Below are positions 9,647 through 38,502 of a stretch of DNA of 64,000 nt, piece after piece (position 1 is the stretch's first letter; every line of letters begins with the position of its first letter). The position numbers and the translations under genes were made by a program. Under the pieces are notes generated by a model that ran no database searches, was not told the DNA's origin, and saw nothing but the letters and a program-made list of their open reading frames with translations. The stretch lies in the NCBI RefSeq assembly GCF_056712565.1, contig NZ_CM160072.1. One strand, written 5' to 3'.

Positions 9647-9659
9647 GGTAGAAAAATAA

Positions 9660-9686
9660 AAACGGCGCTAAAAAGCGCCGTTTTTA
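9660..9686. terminator. Bidirectional rho-independent terminator between convergent creD and arcA
   Basis: AACGGCGCT-aaaa-AGCGCCGTT hairpin flanked by A-run on one side and T-run on the other. Confidence 0.7.
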
Positions 9687-9705
9687 TTGACGGTGGTAAA
9701 GCCGA

Positions 9706-10422: not shown

Positions 10423-10517
10423 GTTTGCTACCTAAATTGCCAACTAAATCGAAACAGGAAGTACAAAAGTCCCTGACCTGCCTGATGCATGCTGCAAATT
10501 AACATGATCGGCGTAAC

Positions 10518-10658
10518 ATGACTAAAGTACGTAATTGCGTTCTTGATGCACTTTCCATCAACGTCAACAACATCATTAGCTTGGTCGTGGGTACTTTCCC
10601 TCAGGACCCGACAGTGTCAAAAACGGCTGTCATCCTAACCATTTTAACAGCAATATAA
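10518..10658 (+). CDS. yjjY: Small protein YjjY (46 aa)
   Basis: ATG at 10518 opens a 46-codon frame MTKVRNCVLDALSINVNNIISLVVGTFPQDPTVSKTAVILTILTAI, at the expected position between arcA and lasT; below the ORF-track length cutoff. Confidence 0.55.
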   Translation: MTKVRNCVLDALSINVNNIISLVVGTFPQDPTVSKTAVILTILTAI

Positions 10659-11057
10659 CAGGCTAAGAGGGGCAGGACACCCAATAAAACTACGCTTCGT
10701 TGACATATATCAAGTTCAATTGTAGCACGTTAACAGTTTGATGAAATGATCGTATCTAAATGCTAGCTTTCGTCACATTATTTTAATAATCCAACTAGTT
10801 GCTTCATACAACTAATAAACGTGGTGAATCCAATTATCGAGATTTATTTTTTATAAAATTATCCTAAGTAAACAGAAGGATATGTAGCATTTTTTAACAA
10901 TTCAATCGTTAGTACAGTCAGGAAATAGTTTAGCTTTTTTTAAGCTAAGCAAAGGGCTTTTCCTGCGACTTACGTTAAGAATTTGTAAATTCGCAACGCG
11001 TAATAAGTTGACAATGATCACCCTGTTCGCGGTTATTTGGTCAAGAAGAGTGGCAAT

Positions 11058-14567: not shown

Positions 14568-15500
14568 ATGGTTAAAGTTTATGCCCCGGCTTCCAGTGCC
14601 AATATGAGCGTCGGGTTTGATGTGCTCGGGGCGGCGGTGACACCTGTTGATGGTGCATTGCTCGGAGATGTAGTCACGGTTGAGGCGGCAGAGACATTCA
14701 GTCTCAACAACCTCGGACGCTTTGCCGATAAGCTGCCGTCAGAGCCACGGGAAAATATCGTTTATCAGTGCTGGGAGCGTTTTTGCCAGGAGCTTGGCAA
14801 GCAAATTCCAGTGGCGATGACTCTGGAAAAGAATATGCCGATCGGTTCGGGCTTAGGCTCCAGCGCCTGTTCAGTGGTCGCGGCGCTGATGGCGATGAAT
14901 GAACACTGCGGCAAGCCGCTTAATGACACTCGTTTGCTGGCTTTGATGGGCGAGTTGGAAGGGCGTATCTCCGGCAGCATTCATTACGACAACGTGGCAC
15001 CGTGTTTTCTTGGTGGTATGCAGTTGATGATTGAAGAAAACGACATCATCAGTCAGCAAGTGCCAGGGTTTGATGAGTGGCTGTGGGTGCTGGCGTATCC
15101 GGGGATTAAAGTCTCGACGGCAGAAGCCAGGGCTATTTTACCGGCGCAGTATCGCCGCCAGGATTGCATTGCGCACGGGCGACATCTGGCAGGCTTCATT
15201 CACGCCTGCTATTCCCGTCAGCCTGAGCTTGCCGCGAAGCTGATGAAAGATGTTATCGCTGAACCCTACCGTGAACGGTTACTGCCAGGCTTCCGGCAGG
15301 CGCGGCAGGCGGTTGCGGAAATCGGCGCGGTAGCGAGCGGTATCTCCGGCTCCGGCCCGACTTTGTTCGCTCTGTGTGACAAGCCGGATACCGCCCAGCG
15401 CGTTGCCGACTGGTTGGGTAAAAACTACCTGCAAAATCAGGAAGGTTTTGTTCATATTTGCCGGCTGGATACGGCGGGCGCACGAGTACTGGAAAACTAA
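14568..15500 (+). CDS. thrB: Homoserine kinase
   Basis: 310-aa [27 protein letters not shown]... with GHMP kinase motif [10 protein letters not shown]. Confidence 0.97.
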
Positions 15501-16787
15501 ATGAAACTCTACAATCTGAAAGATCACAATGAGCAGGTCAGCTTTGCGCAAGCCGTAACCCAGGGGTTGGGCAAAAATCAGGGGCTGTTTTTCCCGCACG
15601 ACCTGCCGGAATTCAGCCTGACTGAAATTGATGAGATGCTGAAGCTGGATTTTGTCACCCGCAGTGCGAAGATCCTCTCGGCGTTTATTGGTGATGAAAT
15701 CCCGCAGGAAATCCTGGAAGAGCGCGTACGCGCGGCGTTTGCCTTCCCGGCTCCGGTCGCCAATGTTGAAAGCGATGTCGGTTGTCTGGAATTGTTCCAC
15801 GGGCCAACGCTGGCATTTAAAGATTTCGGCGGTCGCTTTATGGCACAAATACTGACCCATATTGCGGGCGATAAGCCAGTGACCATTCTGACCGCGACAT
15901 CCGGTGATACTGGAGCGGCAGTGGCTCATGCTTTCTACGGTTTACCGAATGTGAAAGTGGTTATCCTCTATCCACGAGGCAAAATCAGTCCACTGCAAGA
16001 AAAACTGTTCTGTACATTGGGCGGCAATATCGAAACTGTTGCCATCGACGGCGATTTCGATGCCTGTCAGGCGCTGGTGAAGCAGGCGTTTGATGATGAA
16101 GAACTGAAAGTGGCGCTGGGGCTAAACTCTGCTAACTCCATTAACATCAGCCGTTTGCTGGCGCAGATTTGCTACTACTTTGAAGCTGTTGCGCAGCTGC
16201 CGCAGGAAGCGCGCAACCAGCTGGTTGTCTCGGTGCCAAGCGGAAACTTCGGCGATTTGACGGCGGGTCTGCTGGCGAAGTCACTCGGTCTGCCGGTGAA
16301 ACGTTTTATTGCTGCGACCAACGTGAACGATACCGTGCCACGTTTCCTGCACGACGGTCAGTGGTCACCCAAAGCGACTCAGGCGACGTTATCCAATGCG
16401 ATGGATGTTAGCCAGCCAAACAACTGGCCGCGTGTGGAAGAGTTGTTCCGCCGCAAAATCTGGCAACTGAAAGAGCTGGGGTATGCAGCCGTGGATGATG
16501 AAACCACGCAACAGACAATGCGTGAGTTAAAAGAACTGGGCTATACCTCGGAGCCGCACGCTGCCGTAGCTTATCGTGCGCTGCGTGACCAGTTGAATCC
16601 AGGCGAATATGGCTTGTTCCTCGGCACCGCGCATCCGGCGAAATTTAAAGAGAGCGTGGAAGCGATTCTCGGTGAAACGTTGGATCTGCCAAAAGAGCTG
16701 GCAGAACGTGCTGATTTACCCTTGCTTTCGCATAACCTGCCCGCCGATTTTGCTGCGTTGCGTAAATTGATGATGAATCATCAGTAA
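15501..16787 (+). CDS. thrC: Threonine synthase
   Basis: 428-aa ORF MKLYNLKDHNEQVSFAQAVTQGLG... with PLP-lysine region FHGPTLAFKDFGGRF. Confidence 0.97.
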   Translation: MKLYNLKDHNEQVSFAQAVTQGLGKNQGLFFPHDLPEFSLTEIDEMLKLDFVTRSAKILSAFIGDEIPQEILEERVRAAFAFPAPVANVESDVGCLELFHGPTLAFKDFGGRFMAQILTHIAGDKPVTILTATSGDTGAAVAHAFYGLPNVKVVILYPRGKISPLQEKLFCTLGGNIETVAIDGDFDACQALVKQAFDDEELKVALGLNSANSINISRLLAQICYYFEAVAQLPQEARNQLVVSVPSGNFGDLTAGLLAKSLGLPVKRFIAATNVNDTVPRFLHDGQWSPKATQATLSNAMDVSQPNNWPRVEELFRRKIWQLKELGYAAVDDETTQQTMRELKELGYTSEPHAAVAYRALRDQLNPGEYGLFLGTAHPAKFKESVEAILGETLDLPKELAERADLPLLSHNLPADFAALRKLMMNHQ

Positions 16788-16808
16788 CATCTATTCATTA
16801 TCTCAATC

Positions 16809-16844
16809 AGGCCGGGTTTGCTTTTATGCAGCCCGGCTTTTTTA
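16809..16844 (+). terminator. Probable thr operon terminator
   Basis: GCCGGG...CCCGGC stem followed by TTTTTT about 25 bp after the thrC stop. Confidence 0.55.
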
Positions 16845-17000
16845 TGAAGAAAATATGGAGAAAAACGACAGGGAAAAAGGAGAAATTCTCAATAAATGCG
16901 GTAAATTAGAGATTAGGATTGCGGAGAATAACAACTGCCGTTCTCATCGCGTAATCTCCGGATATCGACCCATAACGGGCAATGATAAAAGGAGTAACCT

Positions 17001-17297
17001 GTGAAAAAGATGCAATCTATCGTACTCGCACTTTCCCTGGTTCTGGTCGCTCCCATGGCAGCGCAGGCTGCGGAAATTACGCTAGTCCCGTCAGTAAAAT
17101 TACAGATAGGCGATCGTGATAATCGTGGCTATTACTGGGATGGCGGTCACTGGCGCGACCACGGCTGGTGGAAACAACATTATGAATGGCGAGGCAATCG
17201 CTGGCACCCATATGGACCGCCGCCATCGCCGCGCCATAACAAGCACAATGATCATCGTGGCGATCATCGTCCGGAGCCGGACAAACATCATCGCTAA
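17001..17297 (+). CDS. yaaX: His/Trp-rich small secreted protein YaaX (DUF2502)
   Basis: 98-aa ORF with GTG start, signal peptide ([23 protein letters not shown]) and a His/Trp/Arg-rich mature region. Confidence 0.85.
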
Positions 17298-19613: not shown

Positions 19614-19891
19614 GCATATCCCTCTTATTGCCGGTCGCGATGACTTTCCTGTGTAAACGTTACCAATTGTTTAAGAAGTATATACGCTACGAGGTACTTG
19701 ATAACTTCTGCGTAGCATACATGAGGTTTTGTATAAAAATGGCGGGCGATATCAACGCAGTGTCAGAAATCCGAAACAGTCTCGCCTGGCGATAACCGTC
19801 TTGTCGGCGGTTGCGCTGACGTTGCGTCGTGATATCATCAGGGCAGACCGGTTACATCCCCCTAACAAGCTGTTTAAAGAGAAATACTATC

Positions 19892-20845
19892 ATGACGGAC
19901 AAATTGACCTCCCTTCGTCAGTACACCACCGTAGTGGCCGACACTGGGGACATCGCGGCAATGAAGCTGTATCAACCGCAGGATGCCACAACCAACCCTT
20001 CTCTCATTCTTAACGCAGCGCAGATTCCGGAATACCGTAAGTTGATTGATGATGCTGTCGCCTGGGCGAAACAGCAGAGCAACGATCGCGCGCAGCAGAT
20101 CGTGGACGCGACCGACAAACTGGCCGTAAATATTGGTCTGGAAATCCTGAAACTGGTTCCGGGCCGTATCTCAACTGAAGTTGATGCGCGTCTTTCCTAT
20201 GACACCGAAGCGTCAATTGCGAAAGCAAAACGCCTGATCAAACTCTACAACGATGCAGGTATTAGCAACGATCGTATTCTGATCAAACTGGCTTCTACCT
20301 GGCAGGGTATCCGTGCTGCGGAACAGCTGGAAAAAGAAGGCATCAACTGTAACCTGACCCTGCTGTTCTCCTTCGCTCAGGCTCGTGCTTGTGCGGAAGC
20401 GGGCGTGTTCCTGATCTCGCCGTTTGTTGGCCGTATTCTTGACTGGTACAAAGCGAATACCGATAAGAAAGAGTACGCTCCGGCAGAAGATCCGGGCGTG
20501 GTTTCTGTATCTGAAATCTACCAGTACTACAAAGAGCATGGTTATGAAACCGTGGTTATGGGCGCAAGCTTCCGTAACATCGGCGAAATTCTGGAACTGG
20601 CAGGCTGCGACCGTCTGACCATCGCACCGGCACTGCTGAAAGAGCTGGCGGAGAGCGAAGGGGCTATCGAACGTAAACTGTCTTACACTGGTGAAGTGAA
20701 AGCGCGTCCGGCGCGTATCACTGAGTCCGAGTTCCTGTGGCAGCACAACCAGGATCCAATGGCAGTAGATAAACTGGCGGAAGGTATCCGTAAGTTTGCT
20801 GTTGACCAGGAAAAACTGGAAAAAATGATCGGCGATCTGCTGTAA
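19892..20845 (+). CDS. talB: Transaldolase B
   Basis: 317-aa protein [25 protein letters not shown]...; start set at the internal ATG at 19892 (ORF track starts upstream at 19829). Confidence 0.97.
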
Positions 20846-20959: not shown

Positions 20960-21547
20960 ATGAATACTTTACGTATTGGCTTAGTTTCCATCTCTGATCG
21001 CGCATCCAGCGGCGTTTATCAGGATAAAGGCATCCCTGCGCTGGAAGAATGGCTGACATCGGCGCTAACCACGCCGTTTGAACTGGAAACCCGCTTAATC
21101 CCCGATGAGCAGGCGATCATCGAGCAAACGTTGTGTGAGCTGGTGGATGAAATGAGTTGCCATCTGGTGCTCACCACGGGCGGAACTGGCCCGGCGCGTC
21201 GTGACGTAACGCCCGATGCGACGCTGGCAGTAGCGGACCGCGAGATGCCAGGCTTTGGTGAACAGATGCGCCAGATCAGCCTGCATTTTGTACCAACTGC
21301 GATCCTTTCGCGTCAGGTGGGGGTGATTCGCAAACAGGCGCTGATCCTTAACTTACCCGGTCAACCGAAGTCTATTAAAGAGACGCTGGAAGGTGTGAAG
21401 GACGCTGAGGGTAACGTTGTGGTGCACGGTATTTTTGCCAGCGTACCGTACTGCATTCAGTTGCTGGAAGGGCCATACGTTGAAACGGCACCGGAAGTGG
21501 TTGCAGCATTCAGACCGAAGAGTGCAAGACGCGAAGTTAGCGAATAA
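20960..21547 (+). CDS. mog: Molybdopterin adenylyltransferase Mog
   Basis: ORF MNTLRIGLVSISDRASSGVYQDKGIPALEEW...; MoaB/MogA family. Start could be one codon earlier. Confidence 0.92.
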   Translation: MNTLRIGLVSISDRASSGVYQDKGIPALEEWLTSALTTPFELETRLIPDEQAIIEQTLCELVDEMSCHLVLTTGGTGPARRDVTPDATLAVADREMPGFGEQMRQISLHFVPTAILSRQVGVIRKQALILNLPGQPKSIKETLEGVKDAEGNVVVHGIFASVPYCIQLLEGPYVETAPEVVAAFRPKSARREVSE

Positions 21548-21593
21548 AAAAATCCCCCCAAGCGGGGGGATCAGACTGATGACAAACGCAAAA

Positions 21594-21694
21594 CTGCCTG
21601 ATGCGCTACGCTTATCAGGCCTACGATCTTCTTGCAATATATTGAATTTGCACGATTTTGTAGGCCGGATAAGGCGTTCACGCCGCATCCGGCA
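21594..21694. repeat. REP/BIME cluster between mog and satP
   Basis: CTGCCTGATGCGCTACGCTTATCAGGCCTAC and GTAGGCCGGATAAGGCGTTCACGCCGCATCCGGCA units in opposite orientation. Confidence 0.7.
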
Positions 21695-21751
21695 TAAACA
21701 AAGCGCACGTTGTTAACAATCTTATCCCTTCGAGCGGGGGGAGCTTAACAA

Positions 21752-22318
21752 TTAGTGAGACTCACCAATCGGCAGAACGGTGCGACCAAACTGCTCGTTC
21801 AGCACTTCACCCATCGCCAGATAGATTGCACTGGCACCGCAGATAAGACCAATCCAGCCGGCAAAGTGGATGATCGCGGCGTTACCGGCAATGTTACCGA
21901 TCGCCAGCAGGGCAAACAGCACGGTCAGGCTAAAGAAAACGAATTGCAGAACGCGTGCGCCTTTCAGCGTGCCGAAGAACATAAACAGCGTAAATATGCC
22001 CCACAGACCCAGGTAGACACCAAGGAACTGTGCATTTGGCGCATCGGTCAGCCCCAGTTTCGGCATCAGCAGAATTGCAACCAGCGTCAGCCAGAAAGAA
22101 CCGTAAGAGGTGAATGCGGTTAAACCGAAAGTGTTGCCTTTTTTGTACTCCAGCAGACCGGCAAAAATTTGCGCGATGCCGCCGTAGAAAATGCCCATGG
22201 CAAGAATAATACCGTCCAGAGCAAAATAACCCACGTTGTGCAGGTTAAGCAGAATGGTGGTCATGCCGAAGCCCATCAGGCCCAGCGGTGCCGGATTAGC
22301 CAACTTAGTGTTGCCCAT
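21752..22318 (-). CDS. satP: Succinate-acetate/proton symporter SatP (GPR1/FUN34/YaaH family)
   Basis: 188-aa six-TM ORF MGNTKLANPAPLGLMGFGMTTILLNLHN...; matches YaaH/SatP. Confidence 0.92.
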   Translation of the reverse strand: MGNTKLANPAPLGLMGFGMTTILLNLHNVGYFALDGIILAMGIFYGGIAQIFAGLLEYKKGNTFGLTAFTSYGSFWLTLVAILLMPKLGLTDAPNAQFLGVYLGLWGIFTLFMFFGTLKGARVLQFVFFSLTVLFALLAIGNIAGNAAIIHFAGWIGLICGASAIYLAMGEVLNEQFGRTVLPIGESH

Positions 22319-22466
22319 AATTCCTCAAAAATCATCATCGAATGAATGGTGAAATAATTTCCCTGAATAACTGTAGTGTTTTCAGGGCGCGGCATAATAA
22401 TCAGCCAGTGGGGCAGTGTCTACGATCTTTTGAGGGGAAAATGAAAATTTTCCCCGGTTTCCGGTA

Positions 22467-23180
22467 TCAGACCTGAGTGGCGCTAACCATCCGGCGCAGG
22501 CAGGCGATTTGCAGTACGGCTGGAATTGTCACGCGATAGGCACTGCCGCTGACCGCTTTAACCCCATTTAATGCTGCGCCCACAGGGCCTCCCAGACCCG
22601 CGCCGCGCAGCAAACCATGCCCAAGCACGCTCATTGCTGCGTGGGTGCGTAAAATGCGGGTCAATTGGCTGGAAAGCAAATGCGACACACCTTTTGCCAA
22701 TAATTTGTCTTTCATCAGCAGCGGCAGCAGCTCTTCCAGCTCATTCACCCTGGCATCGACCGCGTGCAGAAACTCCTGCTTATGTTCCTCGTCCATTTTC
22801 TTCCAGGTATTACGCAGAAATTGTTCCAGTAACTGTTGCTCAATTTCAAACGTAGACATCTCTTTGTCGGCTTTCAGCTTCAATCGCTTTGAAACATCGA
22901 GCAAAATGGCGCGATACAATTTACCGTGTCCGCGCAGTTTGTTGGCGATACTATCGCCACCAAAATGCTGTAATTCTCCGGCAATCAGCTGCCAGTTGCG
23001 GCGGTGTCGCTCGGGATGTCCTTCCATCGATTTAAACAGTTCGTTGCGCATCAGTACGCTGGAGAGGCGAGTTTTGCCTTTTTCATTATGGGTGAGCAGC
23101 CGGGCGAAATTTGCCAACTGTTCCTCACTACAATGCTGGAGAAAATCCAGATCTGAATCATTCAGGTAATTAACATTCAT
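22467..23180 (-). CDS. yaaW: UPF0174 family protein YaaW
   Basis: 237-aa ORF MNVNYLNDSDLDFLQHCSEEQLANFARLL...; matches YaaW. Confidence 0.85.
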   Translation of the reverse strand: MNVNYLNDSDLDFLQHCSEEQLANFARLLTHNEKGKTRLSSVLMRNELFKSMEGHPERHRRNWQLIAGELQHFGGDSIANKLRGHGKLYRAILLDVSKRLKLKADKEMSTFEIEQQLLEQFLRNTWKKMDEEHKQEFLHAVDARVNELEELLPLLMKDKLLAKGVSHLLSSQLTRILRTHAAMSVLGHGLLRGAGLGGPVGAALNGVKAVSGSAYRVTIPAVLQIACLRRMVSATQV

Positions 23181-25986: not shown

Positions 25987-27117
25987 ATGGCTAAGCAAGA
26001 TTATTACGAGATTTTAGGCGTTTCCAAAACAGCGGAAGAGCGTGAAATCAAAAAGGCCTACAAACGCCTGGCCATGAAATACCACCCGGACCGTAACCAG
26101 GGTGACAAAGAGGCCGAGGCGAAATTTAAAGAGATCAAGGAAGCTTATGAAGTTCTGACCGACTCGCAAAAACGTGCGGCATACGATCAGTATGGTCATG
26201 CTGCGTTTGAGCAAGGCGGCATGGGCGGCGGCGGTTTTGGCGGCGGCGCAGACTTCAGCGATATTTTTGGTGACGTTTTCGGCGATATTTTTGGCGGCGG
26301 ACGTGGTCGTCAACGTGCGGCGCGCGGTGCTGATTTACGCTATAACATGGAGCTCACCCTCGAAGAAGCTGTACGTGGCGTGACCAAAGAGATCCGCATT
26401 CCGACTCTGGAAGAGTGTGACGTTTGCCACGGTAGCGGTGCAAAACCAGGTACACAGCCGCAGACCTGTCCGACCTGTCATGGTTCTGGCCAGGTGCAGA
26501 TGCGCCAGGGTTTCTTTGCCGTGCAGCAGACCTGTCCACACTGTCAGGGCCGCGGTACGCTGATCAAAGATCCGTGCAACAAATGTCATGGTCATGGTCG
26601 TGTTGAGCGCAGCAAAACGCTGTCCGTTAAAATCCCGGCAGGGGTGGACACTGGAGACCGCATCCGTCTTGCGGGCGAAGGTGAAGCGGGTGAACACGGC
26701 GCACCGGCAGGCGATCTGTACGTTCAGGTTCAGGTTAAACAGCACCCGATTTTCGAGCGTGAAGGCAACAACCTGTATTGCGAAGTCCCGATCAACTTCG
26801 CTATGGCGGCGCTGGGTGGTGAAATCGAAGTACCGACCCTTGATGGTCGCGTCAAACTGAAAGTGCCTGGCGAAACCCAGACCGGTAAGCTGTTCCGTAT
26901 GCGCGGTAAAGGCGTCAAGTCTGTCCGCGGTGGCGCACAGGGTGATTTGCTATGCCGCGTTGTTGTCGAAACACCGGTAGGTTTGAACGAGAAGCAGAAA
27001 CAGCTGCTGCAAGAGCTGCAAGAAAGCTTTGGTGGCCCAACCGGCGAGCACAACAGCCCGCGTTCAAAGAGCTTCTTTGATGGCGTGAAGAAGTTTTTTG
27101 ACGACCTGACTCGCTAA
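25987..27117 (+). CDS. dnaJ: Co-chaperone DnaJ (Hsp40)
   Basis: 376-aa protein [12 protein letters not shown]... with J-domain HPD, Gly/Phe-rich linker and four CxxCxGxG zinc-finger repeats; start set at ATG 25987. Confidence 0.98.
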
Positions 27118-27221
27118 CCTCCCCAAAAGCCTGCCCGTGGGCAGGCCAGGGTAAAAACCAGGGTGCGTTGAAGATATGCGAGCACCTGTAAAGTGGCGGG
27201 GATCACTCCCCGCCGTTGCTC

Positions 27222-27374
27222 TTACTCGGATTCGTAAGCCGTGAAAACAGCAACCTCCGTCTGGCCAGTTCGGATGTGAACCTCACAGAGGTCTTTTCTC
27301 GTTACCAGCGCCGCCACTACGGCGGTGATACAGATGACGATCAGGGCGACAATCATCGCCTTATGCTGCTTCAT
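27222..27374 (-). CDS. hokC: Type I toxin HokC (Hok/Gef family membrane toxin)
   Basis: 50-codon frame MKQHKAMIVALIVICITAVVAALVTRKDLCEVHIRTGQTEVAVFTAYESE inside the 80-aa ORF. Confidence 0.88.
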   Translation of the reverse strand: MKQHKAMIVALIVICITAVVAALVTRKDLCEVHIRTGQTEVAVFTAYESE

Positions 27375-27431
27375 TGCTCTCTTCTCCTTGACCTTACGGT
27401 CAGTAAGAGGCACTCTACATGTGTTCTGCAT
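27222..27431 (-). CDS. mokC: MokC, overlapping reading frame that modulates hokC translation
   Basis: Same frame as hokC starting at the upstream Met (MQNTCRVPLTDRKVKEKRA...), as in characterised hok/mok loci. Confidence 0.6.
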   Translation of the reverse strand: MQNTCRVPLTDRKVKEKRAMKQHKAMIVALIVICITAVVAALVTRKDLCEVHIRTGQTEVAVFTAYESE

Positions 27432-27477
27432 ATAGGGGGCCTCGGGTTGATGGTAAAATATCACTCGGGGCTTTTCT
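27423..27477 (+). ncRNA. sokC: Putative SokC antisense RNA (approximate position)
   Basis: Placed only by analogy to hok/sok loci, where Sok is antisense to the mok start region; no promoter or terminator was convincingly identified in the sequence. Confidence 0.3.
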
Positions 27478-27985
27478 CTATCTGCCGTTCAGCTAATGCC
27501 TGAGACAGACAGCCTCAAGCACCCGCCGCTATTATATCGCTCTCTTTAACCCATTCTGTTTTATCGATTCTAATCCTGAAGACGCCTCGCATTTTTGCGT
27601 AATCAATCTTTAGTACATTGTTTATTTTAACTCTTATGTGCGTTTTCATTTACAAAAGTTGAGATTATGAACAAGAGGTTTAAGTTATGCCTGAATGGTG
27701 AGTTATTACTGGAGAAAGTAATAGAAGATACAAAATATTCTTGTACAGAATTGAATTTTCTTTTTGTGAGGAAAAATGTTTATAAATCAATGAGTGATAT
27801 TTAAAATCGACACACTTTTTGAAACACGATACCTCCACACCCGGGGGTAAAAGTAATCTGCGATCTCCATCACGCTTTGCCATTCACCTTTAAATATACT
27901 TTCTGAGTCGTTCTTAATCAAAATGAATTATCTGATGTATTGATTTCTATGGAACCATAAAAAAAATGAATGGAGAGCATATTAT

Positions 27986-28747
27986 ATGTCTGCCAAAAGA
28001 CGGCTTCTTATTGCGTGTGCCCTGACAACGATTTTCTATCACCTTCCTGCATATTCTTCATTAGAATATAAAGGTTCCTTTGGCTCAATAAATGCAGGTT
28101 ATGCTGACTGGAATAGTGGCTTCATTAACACTCATCGTGGTGAAGTATGGAAAGTGACTGCAGACTTTGGTGTGAATTTTAAAGAAGCCGAGTTTTACTC
28201 ATTTTATGAAAGCAATGTGCTTAACCATGCCGTAGCGGGGCGTAATCATACCGTTTCTGCTATGACACATGTCAGACTCTTTGACTCCAATATGACTTTC
28301 TTTGGCAAGATCTATGGTCAATGGGATAACTCATGGGGTGACGATCTTGATATGTTTTATGGTTTGGGCTACCTCGGCTGGAATGGTTCATGGGGGTTTT
28401 TTAAACCGTATATTGGATTACATAATCAATCTGGAGACTACGTCTCAGCCAAATATGGACAAACAAATGGCTGGAATGGTTATGTTGTTGGCTGGACAGC
28501 AGTATTACCTTTTACGTTATTTGACGAAAAATTTGTTTTATCTAACTGGAATGAAATAGAACTGGACAGAAATGATGCCTATGCGGAACAACAATTTGGT
28601 CGGAATGGGCTAAATGGCGGTTTAACAGTAGCCTGGAAGTTCTATCCTCGCTGGAAAGCCAGTGTGACGTGGCGTTATTTCGATAATAAGTTGGGCTACG
28701 ATGGTTTTGGCGATCAAATGATTTATATGCTTGGTTATGATTTCTAA
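27986..28747 (+). CDS. Tsx-family outer-membrane beta-barrel channel (nucleoside-specific-channel-like porin)
   Basis: 253-aa ORF with signal peptide, Trp/Tyr/Gly-rich composition, and C-terminus ...MLGYDF ending in Phe; local similarity to Tsx (LEYxxF near N-terminus, GYxF C-terminus). Good SD (GGAGAG) upstream. Confidence 0.7.
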   Translation: MSAKRRLLIACALTTIFYHLPAYSSLEYKGSFGSINAGYADWNSGFINTHRGEVWKVTADFGVNFKEAEFYSFYESNVLNHAVAGRNHTVSAMTHVRLFDSNMTFFGKIYGQWDNSWGDDLDMFYGLGYLGWNGSWGFFKPYIGLHNQSGDYVSAKYGQTNGWNGYVVGWTAVLPFTLFDEKFVLSNWNEIELDRNDAYAEQQFGRNGLNGGLTVAWKFYPRWKASVTWRYFDNKLGYDGFGDQMIYMLGYDF

Positions 28748-28766
28748 TTTTCATCAGGGAATAATT

Positions 28767-30260
28767 ATGCAGAAAACATTAATGGCCAGTTTGATCGGCC
28801 TTGCAGTTTGCACAGGGAATGCTTTTAATCCAGTCGTAGCTGCCGAGACTAAACAACCCAATTTAGTCATCATTATGGCGGATGATTTAGGCTATGGTGA
28901 TTTAGCAACATATGGACATCAGATCGTTAAAACACCCAATATTGACAGGCTTGCCCAGGAGGGCGTCAAATTTACTGACTACTATGCACCAGCTCCCTTA
29001 AGTTCTCCTTCGCGGGCGGGGTTATTAACGGGGCGGATGCCATTTCGTACCGGCATACGTTCATGGATCCCAACGGGAAAAGATGTGGCATTAGGGCGTA
29101 ATGAACTCACGATTGCTAATCTACTCAAAGCGCAAGGGTATGACACGGCCATGATGGGTAAGCTGCATCTGAATGCAGGCGGCGATCGCACCGATCAGCC
29201 GCAGGCAAAAGATATGGGCTTTGATTACTCACTGGTTAATACGGCGGGTTTTGTTACCGACGCCACGCTGGATAACGCTAAAGAACGCCCGCGTTATGGC
29301 ATGGTTTACCCGACAGGCTGGCTACGTAACGGGCAACCCACTCCACGAGCCGATAAAATGAGCGGTGAGTATGTCAGTTCGGAAGTCGTCAACTGGCTGG
29401 ATAACAAAAAGGACAGCAAGCCTTTCTTCCTCTATGTTGCTTTTACCGAAGTGCATAGCCCCCTGGCTTCGCCCAAAAAATACCTCGACATGTACTCACA
29501 ATATATGAGCGCGTATCAGAAGCAGCATCCTGATTTATTTTATGGCGACTGGGCAGACAAACCCTGGCGTGGTGTGGGGGAATATTATGCCAATATCAGC
29601 TATCTGGATGCACAGGTTGGAAAAGTGCTGGATAAAATCAAAGCGATGGGTGAAGAAGATAACACAATCGTTATTTTTACCAGTGATAACGGTCCGGTAA
29701 CGCGTGAAGCGCGCAAAGTGTATGAGCTGAATTTGGCAGGGGAAACGGATGGATTACGCGGTCGCAAGGATAACCTTTGGGAAGGCGGAATTCGTGTTCC
29801 AGCCATTATTAAATATGGTAAACATCTACCACAGGGAATGGTTTCAGATACACCCGTTTATGGTCTGGACTGGATGCCTACTTTAGCGAAAATGATGAAC
29901 TTCAAATTACCTACAGACCGTACTTTCGATGGTGAATCGCTGGTTCCTGTTCTTGAGCAAAAAGCATTGAAACGCGAAAAGCCATTAATTTTCGGGATTG
30001 ATATGCCATTCCAGGATGATCCAACCGATGAATGGGCGATCCGTGATGGTGACTGGAAGATGATTATCGATCGCAATAATAAACCGAAATATCTCTACAA
30101 TCTGAAATCTGATCGTTATGAAACACTTAATCTGATCGGTAAAAAACCAGATATTGAAAAACAGATGTATGGTAAGTTTTTAAAATATAAAACTGATATT
30201 GATAATGATTCTCTAATGAAAGCCAGAGGTGATAAACCAGAAGCGGTGACCTGGGGCTAA
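28767..30260 (+). CDS. Periplasmic sulfatase, Ser-type (formylglycine precursor is Ser)
   Basis: 497-aa protein with signal peptide (MQKTLMASLIGLAVCTG...), metal-binding IIMADDLGYGDL, and sulfatase signature PLSSPSRAGLLTG (S-x-P-x-R). Start set at the internal ATG with SD, 19 bp after the porin stop. Confidence 0.85.
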   Translation: MQKTLMASLIGLAVCTGNAFNPVVAAETKQPNLVIIMADDLGYGDLATYGHQIVKTPNIDRLAQEGVKFTDYYAPAPLSSPSRAGLLTGRMPFRTGIRSWIPTGKDVALGRNELTIANLLKAQGYDTAMMGKLHLNAGGDRTDQPQAKDMGFDYSLVNTAGFVTDATLDNAKERPRYGMVYPTGWLRNGQPTPRADKMSGEYVSSEVVNWLDNKKDSKPFFLYVAFTEVHSPLASPKKYLDMYSQYMSAYQKQHPDLFYGDWADKPWRGVGEYYANISYLDAQVGKVLDKIKAMGEEDNTIVIFTSDNGPVTREARKVYELNLAGETDGLRGRKDNLWEGGIRVPAIIKYGKHLPQGMVSDTPVYGLDWMPTLAKMMNFKLPTDRTFDGESLVPVLEQKALKREKPLIFGIDMPFQDDPTDEWAIRDGDWKMIIDRNNKPKYLYNLKSDRYETLNLIGKKPDIEKQMYGKFLKYKTDIDNDSLMKARGDKPEAVTWG

Positions 30261-30308
30261 CCTGATAATCATAATAAATGTAATGTATGCCATTTAGGGC
30301 TATGCCCG

Positions 30309-30345
30309 CCTGATTCAGTGCTACGCATTGAATCAGGTTCTTTTC
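30309..30345 (+). terminator. Rho-independent terminator after the porin-sulfatase pair
   Basis: CCTGATTCA-gtgctacgcat-TGAATCAGG perfect 9-bp stem followed by TTCTTTTCG. Confidence 0.65.
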
Positions 30346-30382
30346 GCGTTGAACAATATCAAGATACGGCTATTCGCAGGGA

Positions 30383-31648
30383 GTGGATATGTTTACCAAC
30401 GTAAATGTTGATTGTTGCAAAACACCAGGATGTAAAAACCTGGGGTTGCTGAATAGCCAGGATTATGTCGCACAGGGTAAAAATATTTTATGCCGTGAAT
30501 GTGGTTACTTGTTTCCAGTGATATCTGAACAGTCGCTTAATATTTATCGTAATATTGTGAATCACTCCTGGAGAGGTTTGATTTGCCAATGTTCAACTTG
30601 CGGAGGCACGTCCCTCAAAAAATATGGATATTCTGCACAAGGCCAGAGAAGAATGTATTGCCATCATTGTGAGAAAACATTTATCACTCTGGAACATGTA
30701 ATTACCACACCACGAGGAGCCCTGTTAGCATTGATGATTGAGCAAGGGGAGGCACTTGCGGATATCAGAAAGTCATTACTTCTTAACAGCACTGGACTTA
30801 GCCGTGAACTGTTAAAATTAGCGCGTGAAGCAAACTATAAAGAAAGTCGACAGTGTTTCCCAGCTTCTGATATTACCCTGAGTACCCGCGCTTTTCGCGT
30901 CAAGTATAATGGTAGCAATAACTCTCTTTATGCTCTTGTTACCGCAGAAGAACAAAGCGGCAGGGTGGTTGCCATCTCAACCAATTACTCCCCATCTGCC
31001 GTAGAGCAACATTATCAATACACATCGAACTATGAAGAGCGTATGTCTCCAGGGACGCTGGCACATCATGTCCAGCGCAAAGAGTTACTTACTATGCGGC
31101 GGGATACCTTGTTTGATATTGATTACGGCCCGGCAGTTTTACATCAAAACGATCCGGGAATGTTGGTAAAACCGGTTCTTCCGGCATATCGTCATTTTGA
31201 ACTGGTCAGAATACTGACCGATGAGCATTCCAACAACGTTCAGCATTACCTTGATCACGAATGCTTTATATTGGGCGGCTGCCTGATGGCTAATTTGCAG
31301 CATATTCATCAAGGTCGCTGCCATATTTCCTTTGTCAAAGAGCGCGGTGTGGCACCCGCCACCATTGATTTTCCACCGCGATTATTCCTTAGTGGTGGGG
31401 TACGAAATAATGTCTGGCGTGCATTTTCTAACCGCAATTATTCAATGGCTGTATGCAATCTCACTGGCAGTAAGAAAGTCCGCGAGATGCGGCATGCAAC
31501 ATTGAACAGTGCGACGCGTTTTATCCACTTTGTGGAGAACCATCCTTTCCTTATATCATTGAACCGAATGTCTCCTGCGAATGTCGTTTCTACATTAGAT
31601 ATCCTCAAACATCTGTGGAATAAAAAACTAGAGCATGGAACAATTTAA
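30383..31648 (+). CDS. Uncharacterised protein with two N-terminal InsA-like Cys4 zinc ribbons
   Basis: 421-aa ORF with SD (GGGAG); two C-x(n)-C...C-x2-C motifs (CCKTPGC...CRECG and CQCSTCG...CHHCEKTF) resembling the IS1 InsA zinc ribbon; remainder not recognised. Confidence 0.6.
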   Translation: MDMFTNVNVDCCKTPGCKNLGLLNSQDYVAQGKNILCRECGYLFPVISEQSLNIYRNIVNHSWRGLICQCSTCGGTSLKKYGYSAQGQRRMYCHHCEKTFITLEHVITTPRGALLALMIEQGEALADIRKSLLLNSTGLSRELLKLAREANYKESRQCFPASDITLSTRAFRVKYNGSNNSLYALVTAEEQSGRVVAISTNYSPSAVEQHYQYTSNYEERMSPGTLAHHVQRKELLTMRRDTLFDIDYGPAVLHQNDPGMLVKPVLPAYRHFELVRILTDEHSNNVQHYLDHECFILGGCLMANLQHIHQGRCHISFVKERGVAPATIDFPPRLFLSGGVRNNVWRAFSNRNYSMAVCNLTGSKKVREMRHATLNSATRFIHFVENHPFLISLNRMSPANVVSTLDILKHLWNKKLEHGTI

Positions 31649-31882
31649 TTATTACTTTTCCGAATAATTTCTTCAGAAATCTTGACATTAGACTATGATT
31701 AATGGGGTTTAAGGTCATCAGCCGCCGCTTTCGGGCATCAAAAACTCATCTCTCGCTGATGGCGCAATTCTTTTAATAGATCGTAAAAAGCGAGCTATTC
31801 CTACACTATAATCTGATTTTAACGATGATTCGTGCGGGGTAAAATCGTGAAAACGATCTATTCACCTGAAGAGAAATAAAAA

Positions 31883-33049
31883 GTGAAACATCTGCATCGA
31901 TTCTTTAGCAGTGATGCCTCGGGAGGCATTATTCTCATTATTGCCGCTGTATTAGCGATGATTATGGCCAACAGCGGTGCAACCAGTGGATGGTATCACG
32001 ACTTTCTTGAGACGCCGGTTCAGCTCCGGGTTGGGACACTTGAGATCAACAAGAACATGCTGCTATGGATCAATGACGCTCTGATGGCGGTATTTTTCCT
32101 GTTGGTTGGTCTGGAAGTTAAACGCGAGCTGATGCAAGGTTCGCTGGCCAGTCTGCGCCAGGCGGCATTTCCTGTTATTGCCGCAATCGGCGGGATGATT
32201 GTCCCGGCATTGCTCTATCTGGCTTTTAACTATGCCGATCCGATTACCCGCGAAGGCTGGGCAATCCCGGCGGCGACTGACATTGCCTTTGCACTTGGTG
32301 TGTTGGCGCTGTTGGGAAGTCGTGTTCCGTTAGCGCTGAAGATCTTTTTGATGGCTCTGGCTATTATCGACGATCTTGGGGCCATCATTATCATCGCATT
32401 GTTCTACACTAATGACTTATCGATGGCCTCTCTTGGCGTCGCGGCTGTAGCAATTGCGGTACTCGTGGTATTGAATCTGTGTGGTGTACGCCGCACGGGC
32501 GTTTATATTCTGGTTGGCGTGGTGCTGTGGACAGCGGTGTTGAAATCGGGGGTTCACGCAACCCTGGCTGGCGTCATTGTCGGCTTCTTTATTCCTTTGA
32601 AAGAGAAGCATGGGCGCTCTCCGGCTAAACGTCTGGAGCATGTTTTGCATCCATGGGTGGCGTATCTGATTTTGCCGCTGTTTGCATTTGCTAATGCTGG
32701 CGTTTCACTGCAAGGTGTCACGCTGGAAGGTTTGACCTCCATCCTGCCATTAGGGATCATCGCTGGTTTGCTGATTGGCAAGCCACTGGGTATTAGTCTG
32801 TTCTGCTGGTTGGCGCTGCGTTTGAAATTGGCACATCTGCCAGAGGGAACGACTTACCAGCAAATTATGGCGGTTGGTATCCTGTGCGGTATCGGTTTTA
32901 CTATGTCTATCTTTATTGCCAGCCTGGCATTTGGTAGCGTAGATCCAGAACTGATTAACTGGGCAAAATTAGGTATCCTTGTCGGTTCAATTTCTTCGGC
33001 GGTAATTGGATATAGCTGGTTACGCGTTCGTTTACGTCCATCAGTTTGA
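31883..33049 (+). CDS. nhaA: Na+/H+ antiporter NhaA
   Basis: 388-aa ORF with GTG start ([22 protein letters not shown]...); matches NhaA. Confidence 0.96.
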
Positions 33050-33108
33050 CAGGACGATGTACTGGGGAGCCATAAACGGCTCCCTTTTCATTGTTATCAG
33101 GGAGAGAA

Positions 33109-34014
33109 ATGAGCATGTCTCATATCAATTACAACCACTTGTATTACTTCTGGCATGTCTACAAAGAAGGTTCTGTGGTTGGCGCAGCGGAGGCGCTTTA
33201 TTTAACACCACAAACCATTACCGGGCAGATCCGGGCGCTGGAAGAGCGCCTGCAAGGGAAACTATTTAAGCGTAAAGGACGTGGTCTGGAACCCAGCGAA
33301 CTGGGGGAACTGGTCTATCGCTATGCCGATAAAATGTTCACCTTAAGCCAGGAAATGCTGGATATCGTCAACTATCGCAAAGAGTCCAACTTATTGTTTG
33401 ATGTTGGTGTGGCAGATGCACTTTCCAAACGTCTGGTCAGCAGTGTTCTGGATGCCGCAGTTGTGGAAGACGAGCAGATCCATCTACGCTGTTTCGAATC
33501 GACGCACGAGATGCTTTTAGAGCAGTTGAGTCAGCATAAACTGGATATGATCATCTCTGACTGTCCGATCGATTCCACTCAGCAGGAAGGGCTGTTTTCC
33601 ATGAAAATTGGCGAATGTGGTGTCAGTTTCTGGTGCACTAACCCACTACCAGAAAAGCCGTTTCCTGCCTGTCTTGAAGAGCGTCGTTTACTTATTCCGG
33701 GGCGTCGCTCAATGTTGGGGCGTAAGCTATTAAACTGGTTTAACTCCCAGGGCTTGAACGTCGAAATTTTGGGTGAGTTTGATGATGCTGCGTTGATGAA
33801 AGCCTTTGGGGCGACGCATAACGCTATTTTCGTTGCACCTTCGCTTTACGCTAATGATTTCTATAACGATGACTCGGTTGTGGAGATAGGCCGTGTTGAG
33901 AACGTGATGGAAGAGTACCACGCGATTTTTGCCGAAAGGATGATTCAGCACCCTGCAGTACAGCGTATCTGCAATACAGACTATTCTGCGCTGTTTACTC
34001 CAGCTTCAAAATAA
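33109..34014 (+). CDS. nhaR: LysR-family transcriptional activator NhaR
   Basis: 301-aa protein [40 protein letters not shown]...; start set at the internal Met. Confidence 0.95.
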
Positions 34015-34061
34015 ACATTTGTACTTTGCAGGCCGAATTTTGGCCTGCAGATGGATATAAA

Positions 34062-34089
34062 AAAACCCGCCAGAGCGGGTTTTTTTACA
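34062..34089. terminator. Bidirectional terminator between convergent nhaR and rpsT
   Basis: AAAAAAACCCGC-cag-AGCGGGTTTTTTT symmetric hairpin with A-run and T-run flanks. Confidence 0.75.
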
Positions 34090-34109
34090 AAGCTGACAAC
34101 AACAGGCAA

Positions 34110-34394
<285 letters not shown>

Positions 34395-34475
34395 CTATAT
34401 GGACAATTCAAAGGCCGAGGAATATGCCCTTTTAGCCTTCTTTTGTCAATGGATTTGTGCAAATAAGCGCCGTTA

Positions 34476-34694
34476 ATGTGCCGGCACTCGTTACGTAGTG
34501 ATGGCGCAGGATTCTACCAGCTTGCGGGGTGTGAATACAGCTTTTCCGCGAGAAAAATTGCAGCAGGCGGTCAGTTTCTTCCCATGATTTGCGCCATAGC
34601 AATGAAAAGCCACTTCTTTCTGATTTCGGTACTCAATCGCCGGTTAACCTTGACCGCTGTACAAGGTATACTCGGACGATTTTCACTGTTTTGA
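34476..34694 (+). CDS. yaaY: Small uncharacterised protein YaaY
   Basis: 72-aa ORF at the expected position upstream of ribF; coding status is weak. Confidence 0.45.
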   Translation: MCRHSLRSDGAGFYQLAGCEYSFSARKIAAGGQFLPMICAIAMKSHFFLISVLNRRLTLTAVQGILGRFSLF

Positions 34695-34701
34695 GCCAGA
34701 C

Positions 34702-35643
34702 ATGAAGCTGATACGCGGCATACATAATCTCAGCCAGGCCCCGCAAGAAGGGTGTGTGCTGACTATTGGTAATTTCGACGGCGTGCATCGCGGTCATCGC
34801 GCGCTGTTACAGGGCTTGCAGGAAGAAGGGCGCAAGCGCAACTTACCGGTGATGGTGATGCTTTTTGAACCTCAACCACTGGAACTGTTTGCTACTGATA
34901 AAGCCCCGGCACGGCTCACCCGGCTGCGGGAAAAACTGCGTTATCTTGCAGAGTGTGGCGTTGATTACGTGCTGTGCGTGCGTTTTGACAGGCGTTTTGC
35001 GGCGTTAACCGCGCAAAACTTCATCAGTGATCTTCTGGTGAAGCACTTGCGGGTAAAATTTCTTGCCGTAGGTGACGATTTCCGCTTTGGCGCTGGTCGT
35101 GAAGGCGATTTCTTGTTATTACAGAAAGCGGGCATGGAATACGGCTTCGATATCACCAGCACGCAAACTTTTTGCGAAGGTGGCGTGCGTATCAGCAGCA
35201 CCGCCGTGCGTCAGGCGCTTGCGGATGACAATCTGGCTCTGGCAGAAAGTTTACTGGGGCACCCGTTTGCCATCTCCGGGCGTGTAGTCCACGGTGATGA
35301 ATTAGGGCGCACTATAGGTTTCCCGACGGCGAATGTACCGCTACGCCGTCAGGTTTCCCCGGTGAAAGGGGTTTATGCGGTAGAAGTGTTGGGCCTTGGC
35401 GAAAAGCCGTTACCCGGCGTTGCAAACATCGGAACACGCCCAACGGTTGCCGGTATTCGCCAGCAACTGGAAGTGCATTTGTTAGATGTTGCAATGGACC
35501 TTTATGGTCGCCATATACAAGTAGTGCTGCGTAAAAAAATACGCAATGAGCAGCGATTTGCATCGCTGGACGAACTGAAAGCGCAGATTGCGCGTGATGA
35601 ATTAACCGCCCGCGAATTTTTTGGGCTAACAAAACCGGCTTAA
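34702..35643 (+). CDS. ribF: Bifunctional riboflavin kinase / FMN adenylyltransferase
   Basis: 313-aa ORF MKLIRGIHNLSQAPQEGCVLTIGNFDGVHRGHRALL... Confidence 0.97.
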   Translation: MKLIRGIHNLSQAPQEGCVLTIGNFDGVHRGHRALLQGLQEEGRKRNLPVMVMLFEPQPLELFATDKAPARLTRLREKLRYLAECGVDYVLCVRFDRRFAALTAQNFISDLLVKHLRVKFLAVGDDFRFGAGREGDFLLLQKAGMEYGFDITSTQTFCEGGVRISSTAVRQALADDNLALAESLLGHPFAISGRVVHGDELGRTIGFPTANVPLRRQVSPVKGVYAVEVLGLGEKPLPGVANIGTRPTVAGIRQQLEVHLLDVAMDLYGRHIQVVLRKKIRNEQRFASLDELKAQIARDELTAREFFGLTKPA

Positions 35644-35685
35644 GCCTGTTATGTAATCAAACCGAAATACGGAACCGAGAATCTG

Positions 35686-38502
35686 ATGAGTGACTATAAA
35701 TCAACCCTGAATTTGCCGGAAACAGGGTTCCCGATGCGTGGCGATCTCGCCAAGCGCGAACCGGGAATGCTGGCGCGTTGGACTGATGATGATCTGTACG
35801 GCATCATTCGTGCAGCTAAAAAAGGCAAAAAAACCTTCATTCTGCATGATGGCCCTCCTTATGCGAATGGCAGTATTCATATTGGTCACTCGGTTAACAA
35901 GATTCTGAAAGACATTATCATTAAGTCCAAAGGGCTTTCTGGATATGACTCGCCGTATGTGCCTGGCTGGGACTGTCATGGTCTGCCAATCGAGCTGAAA
36001 GTAGAGCAAGAATACGGTAAGCCGGGGGAGAAATTCACCGCCGCTGAGTTCCGCGCCAAGTGCCGCGAATACGCTGCGACCCAGGTTGACGGTCAGCGCA
36101 AAGACTTTATCCGTCTGGGCGTGCTGGGCGACTGGTCGCACCCGTACCTGACCATGGACTTCAAAACTGAAGCCAACATCATCCGCGCGCTGGGCAAAAT
36201 CATCGGCAACGGTCACCTGCACAAAGGCGCGAAGCCGGTGCACTGGTGCGTTGACTGCCGTTCTGCACTGGCAGAAGCGGAAGTTGAGTATTACGACAAA
36301 ACTTCTCCGTCCATCGACGTCGCTTTCCTGGCGGTCGATCAGGATGCGCTTAAAACGAAATTTGGCGTAAGCAATGTTAACGGCCCAATTTCGCTGGTTA
36401 TATGGACCACCACGCCGTGGACGCTGCCTGCTAACCGCGCAATCTCCATTGCACCTGATTTTGATTATGCGCTGGTGCAAATCGACGGTCAGGCCGTGAT
36501 CCTCGCGAAAGATCTGGTTGAAAGCGTAATGCAGCGTATCGGCGTTAGCGATTACACCATTCTTGGCACGGTGAAAGGTGCCGAGCTGGAACTGTTGCGC
36601 TTTACCCATCCGTTTATGGACTTCGATGTTCCGGCAATTCTCGGCGACCACGTTACGCTGGATGCCGGTACCGGTGCCGTTCATACCGCGCCAGGCCACG
36701 GTCCGGACGACTATGTGATCGGTCAAAAATATGGTCTGGAAACCGCTAACCCGGTTGGCCCGGACGGCACTTATCTGCCGGGTACTTACCCGACTCTGGA
36801 TGGCGTTAACGTCTTCAAAGCGAACGATATTGTCATTGCGTTGTTGCAGGAAAAAGGCGCACTGTTGCACGTTGAGAAAATGCAACACAGCTATCCGTGC
36901 TGCTGGCGTCATAAAACGCCGATCATCTTCCGCGCGACGCCGCAGTGGTTCGTCAGCATGGATCAGAAAGGTCTGCGTGCGCAGTCACTGAAAGAGATCA
37001 AAGGCGTGCAGTGGATCCCTGACTGGGGCCAGGCGCGTATCGAGTCGATGGTTGCTAACCGTCCTGACTGGTGTATCTCTCGTCAGCGTACCTGGGGCGT
37101 GCCGATGTCACTGTTCGTGCACAAAGACACAGAAGAACTGCATCCGCGTACTCTCGAACTGATGGAAGAAGTGGCAAAACGCGTTGAAGTTGACGGCATT
37201 CAGGCGTGGTGGGATCTCGATGCGAAAGAGATCCTCGGCGACGAAGCTGACCAGTATGTGAAAGTACCGGATACGCTGGATGTATGGTTTGACTCCGGAT
37301 CTACCCACTCTTCCGTTGTTGATGTGCGTCCGGAATTTGCCGGTCACGCAGCGGACATGTATCTGGAAGGTTCTGACCAACACCGTGGCTGGTTCATGTC
37401 TTCCCTGATGATCTCTACCGCGATGAAGGGCAAAGCGCCATATCGTCAGGTACTGACTCACGGCTTTACCGTGGATGGTCAGGGTCGCAAGATGTCTAAA
37501 TCCATCGGTAACACCGTTTCGCCGCAGGATGTGATGAACAAACTGGGTGCGGATATTCTGCGTCTGTGGGTGGCATCAACCGACTACACTGGCGAAATGG
37601 CCGTTTCTGACGAGATCCTGAAACGTGCTGCCGACAGCTATCGTCGTATCCGTAACACCGCGCGCTTCCTGCTGGCAAACCTGAACGGTTTTGATCCGGC
37701 AAAAGATATGGTGAAACCGGAAGAGATGGTGGTACTGGATCGCTGGGCCGTAGGTTGTGCGAAAGCGGCACAGGAAGACATCCTCAAAGCGTACGAAGCA
37801 TACGATTTCCACGAAGTGGTACAGCGTCTGATGCGCTTCTGCTCCGTTGAGATGGGGTCCTTCTACCTCGACATCATCAAAGACCGTCAGTATACCGCCA
37901 AAGCGGACAGCGTGGCGCGTCGTAGCTGCCAGACTGCGCTGTATCACATCGCAGAAGCGCTGGTTCGCTGGATGGCACCAATCCTCTCCTTCACCGCTGA
38001 TGAAGTGTGGGGTTACCTGCCGGGCGAACGTGAAAAATACGTCTTCACCGGCGAGTGGTACGAAGGCCTGTTTGGTCTGGCAGACAGTGAAGCAATGAAC
38101 GATGCGTTCTGGGACGAGCTGTTGAAAGTGCGTGGCGAAGTGAACAAAGTCATTGAGCAAGCGCGTGCCGATAAGAAAGTGGGCGGCTCGCTGGAAGCGG
38201 CAGTAACCTTGTATGCAGAACCGGAACTGGCGGCGAAACTGACCGCGCTGGGCGATGAATTACGATTTGTCCTGTTGACCTCCGGCGCTACCGTTGCAGA
38301 CTATAACGACGCACCTGCTGATGCCCAGCAGAGCGAAGTCCTCAAAGGGCTGAAAGTCGCGTTGAGTAAAGCCGAAGGTGAGAAGTGCCCTCGCTGCTGG
38401 CACTACACCCAGGATGTCGGCAAGGTGGCGGAACACGCAGAAATCTGCGGCCGCTGTGTCAGCAACGTCGCCGGTGACGGTGAAAAACGTAAGTTTGCCT
38501 GA
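35686..38502 (+). CDS. ileS: Isoleucyl-tRNA synthetase
   Basis: 938-aa ORF with class I HIGH ([11 protein letters not shown]) and KMSKS motifs and C-terminal zinc-binding cysteines. Confidence 0.99.

Follow-up and report, generated by a model that had tools for sequence, protein, structure and literature searches.

Does the short spacer between the convergent genes nhaR and rpsT represent the undisturbed form of a junction that is interrupted by an IS1 element in Escherichia coli K-12, or is it an allele with a history of its own? The question arises from a 64,000-nt stretch of contig NZ_CM160072.1 (NCBI RefSeq assembly GCF_056712565.1), referred to as the window in the following, for which a preliminary description had assumed the former.

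Structure and Genomic Context of the nhaR-rpsT Junction

The stops of nhaR and rpsT face each other across exactly 95 bp, which contain two hairpins, termed HP1 and HP2. The elements of the junction are:

33109-34014, plus strand: nhaR CDS with 301 codons and a stop, taking the ATG of MSMSHINY as start
34015-34109, no strand: nhaR-rpsT spacer, 95 bp between the two stops
34025-34051, no strand: HP1, with a 12-bp stem tttgcaggccga/att/ttggcctgcaga and no adjacent U-tract on either strand
34051-34057, no strand: variable point of the junction; at 34057, just before HP2, homology to the window resumes in all other E. coli junction types
34058-34087, no strand: HP2, predicted intrinsic terminator of rpsT, symmetric A7-CCCGC-CAGA-GCGGG-T7
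34110-34373, minus strand: rpsT CDS (ribosomal protein S20); from 34057 on, the window does not differ from B2 strain R11 (100% identity)

The mechanically called nhaR ORF begins upstream of the ATG, at TTG 33091. The nhaR product is identical to WP_000062878.1, and the same protein is encoded in UTI89, CFT073 and STLEFF_47. In the RefSeq annotation of UTI89 the identical 95-bp spacer is found at 22247-22341, enclosed by nhaR (21341-22246) and rpsT (22342-22605), and the annotation of CFT073 likewise leaves 95 bp between both genes. Over 24 kb (window positions 22000-46000) the identity to UTI89, NU14, MS7163 and similar UTI89-type (UPEC) strains is 100%. The preliminary description was right in these respects: ORF coordinates and folding agree with a 95-bp gap holding two hairpins, one of them symmetric, and the strain, being identical to UPEC isolates over 24 kb, is not K-12.

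Comparison with E. coli K-12

The preliminary description had further stated that K-12 carries an IS1 element in this spacer, and this was confirmed. In K-12 MG1655 IS1A is annotated at 19796-20563, between the nhaR stop at 19620 and the rpsT stop at 20815, and it is absent from the window. The proposed alignment across nhaR-rpsT also showed that K-12 does not have the 95-bp junction. Its spacer measures 1194 bp, composed of 768 bp of IS1A and 426 bp without counterpart in the window. BLAST aligned window positions 31639-34004 with K-12 at 89% and positions 34057-36295 at 97.3%, with no alignment between these segments, and a search of the window with the two IS1A flanks of K-12 (175 and 251 bp) gave no match. 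Since 426 bp remain after subtraction of IS1, the K-12 spacer without its IS element is not the 95-bp junction.

The remaining K-12 sequence could be assigned to the island OI-1 of E. coli O157. The IS1A flanks are 100% and 99% identical to OI-1 DNA. In the intact island, of which they represent the two ends, these sequences are separated by 6505 bp (positions 2297 and 8803 of the O157 locus L002). The 9-bp borders of IS1A in K-12, gtaattgct and tacctcaat, differ from each other, and no target-site duplication is present. Because the duplication is missing and the flanks lie 6505 bp apart in O157, K-12 IS1A is explained as an IS-associated deletion inside the island. The K-12 junction is a different allele, namely the decayed remainder of the OI-1 fimbrial/espX1 island, 6.5 kb of which IS1A has replaced. 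The K-12 locus (b0021/b0022) and the window have the flanking core genes nhaR and rpsT in common; the former harbors its IS within OI-1 remnants, whereas the latter contains neither an IS nor island DNA. According to published work (PMC12428005), IS1A of K-12 adjoins both rpsT and the nhaAR operon, and a strong terminator separates it from rpsT.

An IS1 element is also present at this junction in the pig strain EC6 (position 4334 of locus L085), where it is oriented opposite to that of K-12 (position 6565 of locus L001) and has deleted another part of OI-1. The right-hand boundary of both elements is common within 2 bp (8803 and 8805 in the O157 locus), and the lengths of OI-1 that were deleted differ. 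This common boundary points to a preferred target or, alternatively, to one original insertion that was followed by a series of inversions and deletions.

For IS186A, which is located at 15387-16731 beside hokC/mokC in K-12, the earlier claim of its absence near hokC proved accurate. Window positions 27001-27210 correspond to K-12 15182-15390 and window positions 27199-27603 to K-12 16728-17135, which defines the following element:

27199-27210, no strand: empty target of K-12 IS186A in the dnaJ-hokC spacer; the K-12 flanks are contiguous with a 12-bp overlap

This site does look like a true empty site with one copy of the target shared by both flanks. The nhaR-rpsT spacer of the window is not an empty pre-insertion site of K-12 IS1A in the same sense: the flanks of the element are not contiguous in the window and a duplication of 8-9 bp is lacking.

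Junction Types in Complete E. coli Genomes

A total of 5426 complete E. coli genomes was screened for the content of the junction. OI-1 or its remnants were found in 4227 genomes (1193 of them at a coverage of at least 80%), the marker of an island with a GH31 glycoside hydrolase and an MFS transporter (GH31+MFS) in 640, and the window-type nhaR 3' end together with HP1 in 558, of which 556 span an intact 95-bp junction. These three marker counts come from separate searches, so that the classes may overlap in individual genomes, and they sum to 5425 of the 5426 genomes.

A separate query for the K-12 IS1A arrangement (coverage of at least 80%) retrieved 511 genomes, all of which fall into the OI-1 class. 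This distribution, the residual OI-1 DNA of K-12 with its widely separated and unduplicated flanks, and the lack of any window/K-12 homology between 34004 and 34057 leave hardly any room for the assumption that the window retains an ancestral IS-free junction which was later broken in K-12 by simple insertion of IS1. The presence of IS1A in K-12 and its absence from the window would fit such a history, as would the simple empty site of IS186A near hokC and the compact spacers that are the norm in other genera, but we consider it very improbable. The interpretation of the 95-bp junction as the IS-free ancestor of the K-12 junction was consequently abandoned.

The two occupied states carry unrelated DNA. 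OI-1, corresponding to z0020-z0025 of E. coli O157:H7, has been described as a putative fimbrial cluster encoding FmrA (PMC10877973). In O157 it comprises 6.9 kb with an adhesin-like gene, an usher, a chaperone, a fimbrial subunit and espX1; it lies exactly between nhaR and rpsT and borders on its right-hand side directly on the terminator that is also found in the window, whereas none of the cargo is present in the window. Most of the genomes that match OI-1 possess a form of 64% coverage, in which the usher is truncated. The GH31+MFS island occupies the same junction in R11, JJ1886 and ST131. The allele, which is shared by ST131-type B2 strains, Escherichia sp. E1V33 and Citrobacter werkmanii/youngae, agrees with the window in its position and, on the terminator and rpsT side, by 100% identity from 34057 on; it differs in that it holds 3.9 kb of cargo and that its nhaR 3' end is K-12-like (97.4%), whereas the window has a divergent block and no cargo.

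The nhaR-rpsT junction is an island-integration hotspot with unrelated cargos between the same core genes, and the 95-bp spacer is a compact, cargo-free allele of this hotspot in E. coli and its relatives. B2-type strains with the compact allele include UTI89, CFT073, LF82 and E2348/69. In the literature we found nothing that links nhaR with espX1 or deals with an integration hotspot at nhaR.

The natural isolate STLEFF_47 illustrates that the compact spacer is an IS target itself. Here, a 1312-bp element of the IS3 family (positions 9355-10666 of locus L004) is inserted between HP1 and HP2 of a window-type junction, with a 3-bp duplication (ATG) that corresponds to window positions 34051-34053.

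The Junction in Other Enterobacteriaceae

From other species 80 NhaR-encoding loci were retrieved, 70 of them with a complete rpsT. In these 70 loci the convergent genes nhaR and rpsT are mostly 47-130 bp apart, and the HP2 hairpin was found without exception (70/70). The compact junctions of Citrobacter sp. Cu233, Enterobacter, Leclercia, Buttiauxella and others resemble the window in their convergent stops and the single conserved hairpin that separates them. They differ by the lack of HP1, by a distance of mostly about 20-30 bp from the nhaR stop to the terminator and by a U-tract on the nhaR strand that is often imperfect.

Occupied junctions also occur outside E. coli. Inserts of 1.5-5.8 kb were detected in Phytobacter and Atlantibacter, and downstream of nhaR in C. 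amalonaticus and Escherichia sp. MOD1-EC7003 there are more than 3.6-4.3 kb without homology, the loci as retrieved not including rpsT. Remnants of OI-1 are present at the junction in E. albertii and in the divergent strain SCPM-O-B-8794. The GH31+MFS island is present in Escherichia sp. E1V33 (locus L011; 87%) and in C. werkmanii/C. youngae (loci L014, L015 and L017), where the spacer has a length of 3950 bp in all three loci; the identity between the C. werkmanii copy (L014) and E. coli R11 amounts to 76.6%. An 84-bp remnant of GH31 was identified in C. braakii (locus L078). Either the GH31+MFS island has long resided at this site, or it has been exchanged between genera. A compact junction is probably ancestral at the level of the family Enterobacteriaceae only.

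The Hairpins HP1 and HP2

Folding of positions 34005-34119 yielded both hairpins on both strands, with minimum free energies of -39.8 kcal/mol (plus strand) and -42.6 kcal/mol (minus strand). The z-scores were -6.3 and -5.7, respectively, and none of 200 shuffled sequences was as stable.

HP2 by itself folds with -16.8 (plus) and -17.6 kcal/mol (minus). It has a CCCGC/GCGGG core and a 4-nt loop, and the A7/T7 arms lengthen the stem to 13-14 pairs (13 bp on folding). Both transcribed strands end in a U-tract, encoded by T7 on the plus strand and by T7 on the minus strand, which derives from the A7 arm. The hairpin is located 22 nt from the rpsT stop codon and 43 nt from the nhaR stop codon. Its core is kept in all 71 sequences compared (window plus 70 species), as CCCGC/GCGGG in 63 and as CCGGC/GCCGG, with compensation on both sides, in the other eight. 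The T-run on the rpsT strand comprises seven residues in 69/71 sequences, and the A-run, which provides the U-tract in nhaR direction, varies from 0 to 8. HP2 is, as judged by this conservation, first of all the predicted Rho-independent rpsT terminator of the family. Because it is fully symmetric in this strain, it should stop nhaR transcripts as well, and we regard it as a putative terminator for both directions.

A consensus terminator scan of window positions 33000-35000 missed HP2 on both strands; we attribute this to the rule, which takes the A/T arms for stem and is then left without a T-rich tail. A simple terminator rule of this kind has a blind spot for bidirectional terminators such as HP2.

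The rpsT terminator of K-12 equals HP2 in its distance from the rpsT stop, its CCCGC/GCGGG core and T7 on the rpsT strand. The loops differ (CAGA in the window vs. TTGC/GC in K-12), and on the nhaR strand the perfect T7 of the window stands against GGGCTTTTTC in K-12, where the fold is weaker (-10.8 vs. -16.8 kcal/mol). Distal to the S20 gene, Mackie (1986, Nucleic Acids Res 14:6965) reportedly noted both an IS1 element and a strong terminator. For K-12 a strong terminator was described to prevent rpsT transcription from entering IS1A (PMC12428005).

HP1 by itself reaches -18.7 kcal/mol on the plus strand and -15.7 kcal/mol on the minus strand. It is present as a single copy in the window and at one place per genome in the 558 E. 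coli genomes with the window-type nhaR allele; it was not found in the remaining genomes of the 5426 and is absent from all 80 outgroup loci. A dispersed extragenic palindrome of the REP/BIME type was considered for HP1 and ruled out by its single-copy occurrence in the window and in the 558 genomes. An Rfam search with the HP1-HP2 sequence at a permissive E-value returned no family at the gathering threshold; the best match was STnc370 with 32 bits (threshold 54), and all matches were of generic, terminator-like character. HP1 probably acts as a secondary barrier or as a 3'-end stabilizer of the nhaR mRNA. It is more speculative that HP1 and HP2 give rise to a small RNA derived from the nhaR 3'-UTR, which would be specific to these strains.

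The position of HP1 raises the question whether the compact junction could be a deletion scar, from which a former island (GH31+MFS, as in ST131, or a foreign one that arrived together with the divergent block described below) was removed precisely, with HP1 as the leftover terminator between nhaR and the last gene of the island. Occupied alleles do possess a hairpin of their own right after nhaR (ctcccccaaagttaaggtgggggag in O157 and K-12, acgccccgctacatacggggcgtg in R11) and HP1 is found in the equivalent place; moreover, islands decay readily at this site, as documented by the 64%-coverage form of OI-1, by the IS1-associated deletions in K-12 and EC6 and by the GH31 remnant retained in C. 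braakii. A scar is nevertheless unlikely in our opinion, as none of the 558 window-type genomes contains an island, the 42 bp upstream of HP2 resemble neither OI-1 nor the GH31 island nor any of the 80 outgroup loci, and a direct repeat is missing at the putative deletion point.

Origin of the Divergent nhaR 3' Block

The sequence upstream of HP2 deviates from its surroundings over a well-defined segment:

33441-34056, no strand: divergent, putatively xenologous block of about 616 bp, made up of the 3' two-thirds of nhaR and, with HP1, the initial 42 bp of the spacer

Between the window and the B2 strain R11 there is no mismatch from 33050 to 33440, and 117 mismatches were counted from 33441 to the nhaR stop, mostly three bases apart, i.e., at third codon positions. 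The block shows an identity of about 80% to K-12, O157, R11, E. albertii and E1V33, and thus to every Escherichia tested, and of 81% to Citrobacter sp. Cu233. The nhaR 3' end of K-12 is 87-90% identical to those of E. albertii, E1V33 and SCPM-O-B-8794.

In neighbor-joining trees the block was placed outside the E. coli-E. albertii clade in 200/200 bootstraps and as the immediate sister of this clade in 97%, a position that is based on uncorrected distances over a 633-bp block and may include long-branch effects. For the flanks (nhaA, the 5' part of nhaR and rpsT-ribF) the window was the sister of R11 in 200/200 bootstraps. This phylogenetic discordance points to an imported segment. STLEFF_47 contains the identical block on a K-12-like nhaA background, and it follows from this different background that the block moves by recombination.

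A donor was sought on two levels. On the DNA level none was found among the 80 species loci, in which the best identity to the block was 81.6%. On the protein level (NhaR residues 92-301) the E. coli cluster reached 100% and other clusters, including Salmonella, at most 93%, which is not discriminating. One E. coli genome matches the block at 90-95%, and NT1F25 matches it at 80%; the former possibly stands closer to the donor allele. Escherichia sp. MOD1-EC7003 (locus L019) carries a second, independent foreign nhaR 3' half with about 80% identity to all other Escherichia, which groups with Kluyvera in the neighbor-joining analysis and is followed by more than 4.3 kb unrelated to OI-1 or the GH31 island.

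The divergence of the block might also be explained by vertical retention, i.e., by an unbroken descent of the compact junction and its nhaR 3' allele from the Enterobacteriaceae ancestor into B2, with the islands and the K-12-type nhaR end arising later. The K-12-type end follows the species tree (87-90%), and the window-type end is equally remote from all Escherichia (about 80%), which is opposed to such a descent, just as are the ordinary B2 flanks of the block with their identity to R11 up to 33440 and from 34057 on. In addition, all other sampled Escherichia lineages with identifiable spacer content are occupied or scarred. Taken together, we regard vertical retention as improbable, notwithstanding the compact junction with the same terminator in most genera, the occurrence of the compact allele in several B2-type strains (UTI89, CFT073, LF82 and E2348/69) and the NhaR tail FTPASK, which is nearer to that of Citrobacter and Salmonella (FTPVSK, FTPISK) than to FSPAVR of K-12.

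The best explanation, to which we assign a probability of roughly 0.8, is a compact, cargo-free allele of the hotspot that combines the conserved rpsT terminator with an imported block of nhaR 3' end and HP1. Positions 33441-34056 would have been acquired by homologous recombination from an unsampled lineage related to Escherichia, with one crossover within nhaR and the other at the conserved terminator. In the majority of the B2-type strains outside ST131 that were inspected, the import would have brought in, or left behind, the compact junction. HP2 would serve in this allele as the single bidirectional hairpin that terminates the convergent nhaA-nhaR transcript as well and insulates both genes, and such insulation by one hairpin would be typical of this junction in Enterobacteriaceae. 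We infer this direction and this mechanism of transfer as the most likely ones from the sequences. A point against the import is the right crossover, which is confined to about 30 bp of the terminator, since the window is identical to R11 from 34057 on; a tract of this length is short for RecA-mediated exchange. On the best reading, the compact junction of this lineage is the end of an imported segment and not an undisturbed ancestral state of E. coli. A more far-reaching version, in which E. coli regained its compact junction through gene flow from an unsampled sister of all known Escherichia and the block of about 616 bp is the only visible trace of this lineage, is put forward tentatively, with somewhat less than even chances.

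Further differences were observed in the neighborhood of the junction. Window positions 27604-31638 (about 4 kb, from sokC to nhaA) form a segment that is missing from K-12 and encodes, according to the RefSeq annotations of UTI89 and CFT073, an OmpK-like outer membrane protein, a sulfatase-family protein and a cysteine-rich hypothetical protein of 419 aa. The sulfatase and the hypothetical gene are also present in R11, and the segment is missing from STLEFF_47. The B2-type allele of nhaA (31883-33049) is 93% identical to K-12, vs. 97% downstream of rpsT, and includes stretches of 96-100% identity to Escherichia sp. E1V33. The nhaA-nhaR region as a whole looks mosaic.

Significance of the Compact Junction

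All components of the junction belong to known categories: a conserved shared terminator, a known IS, known islands and recombination at the flank of a hotspot. That two convergent genes share a terminator is textbook knowledge. Annotations of the junction already exist for UTI89, CFT073 and hundreds of other genomes, and IS1A and OI-1 are documented. Beyond correct annotation its import is therefore small; it is an ordinary, already annotated variant of an island site with strain-variable cargo and not the pre-insertion form of K-12. For comparative work it is of relevance that IS1A of K-12 is not a simple insertion and is unfit for inferring an "ancestral" empty site. A multi-state hotspot with its compact allele on a recombinant segment calls for caution in IS-based strain typing and in reconstructions of K-12 history. 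On the more far-reaching reading, with gene flow from an unsampled sister lineage, the junction would represent a clean three-allele polymorphism over 5425 of the 5426 complete genomes, which would be usable as a lineage marker in E. coli.
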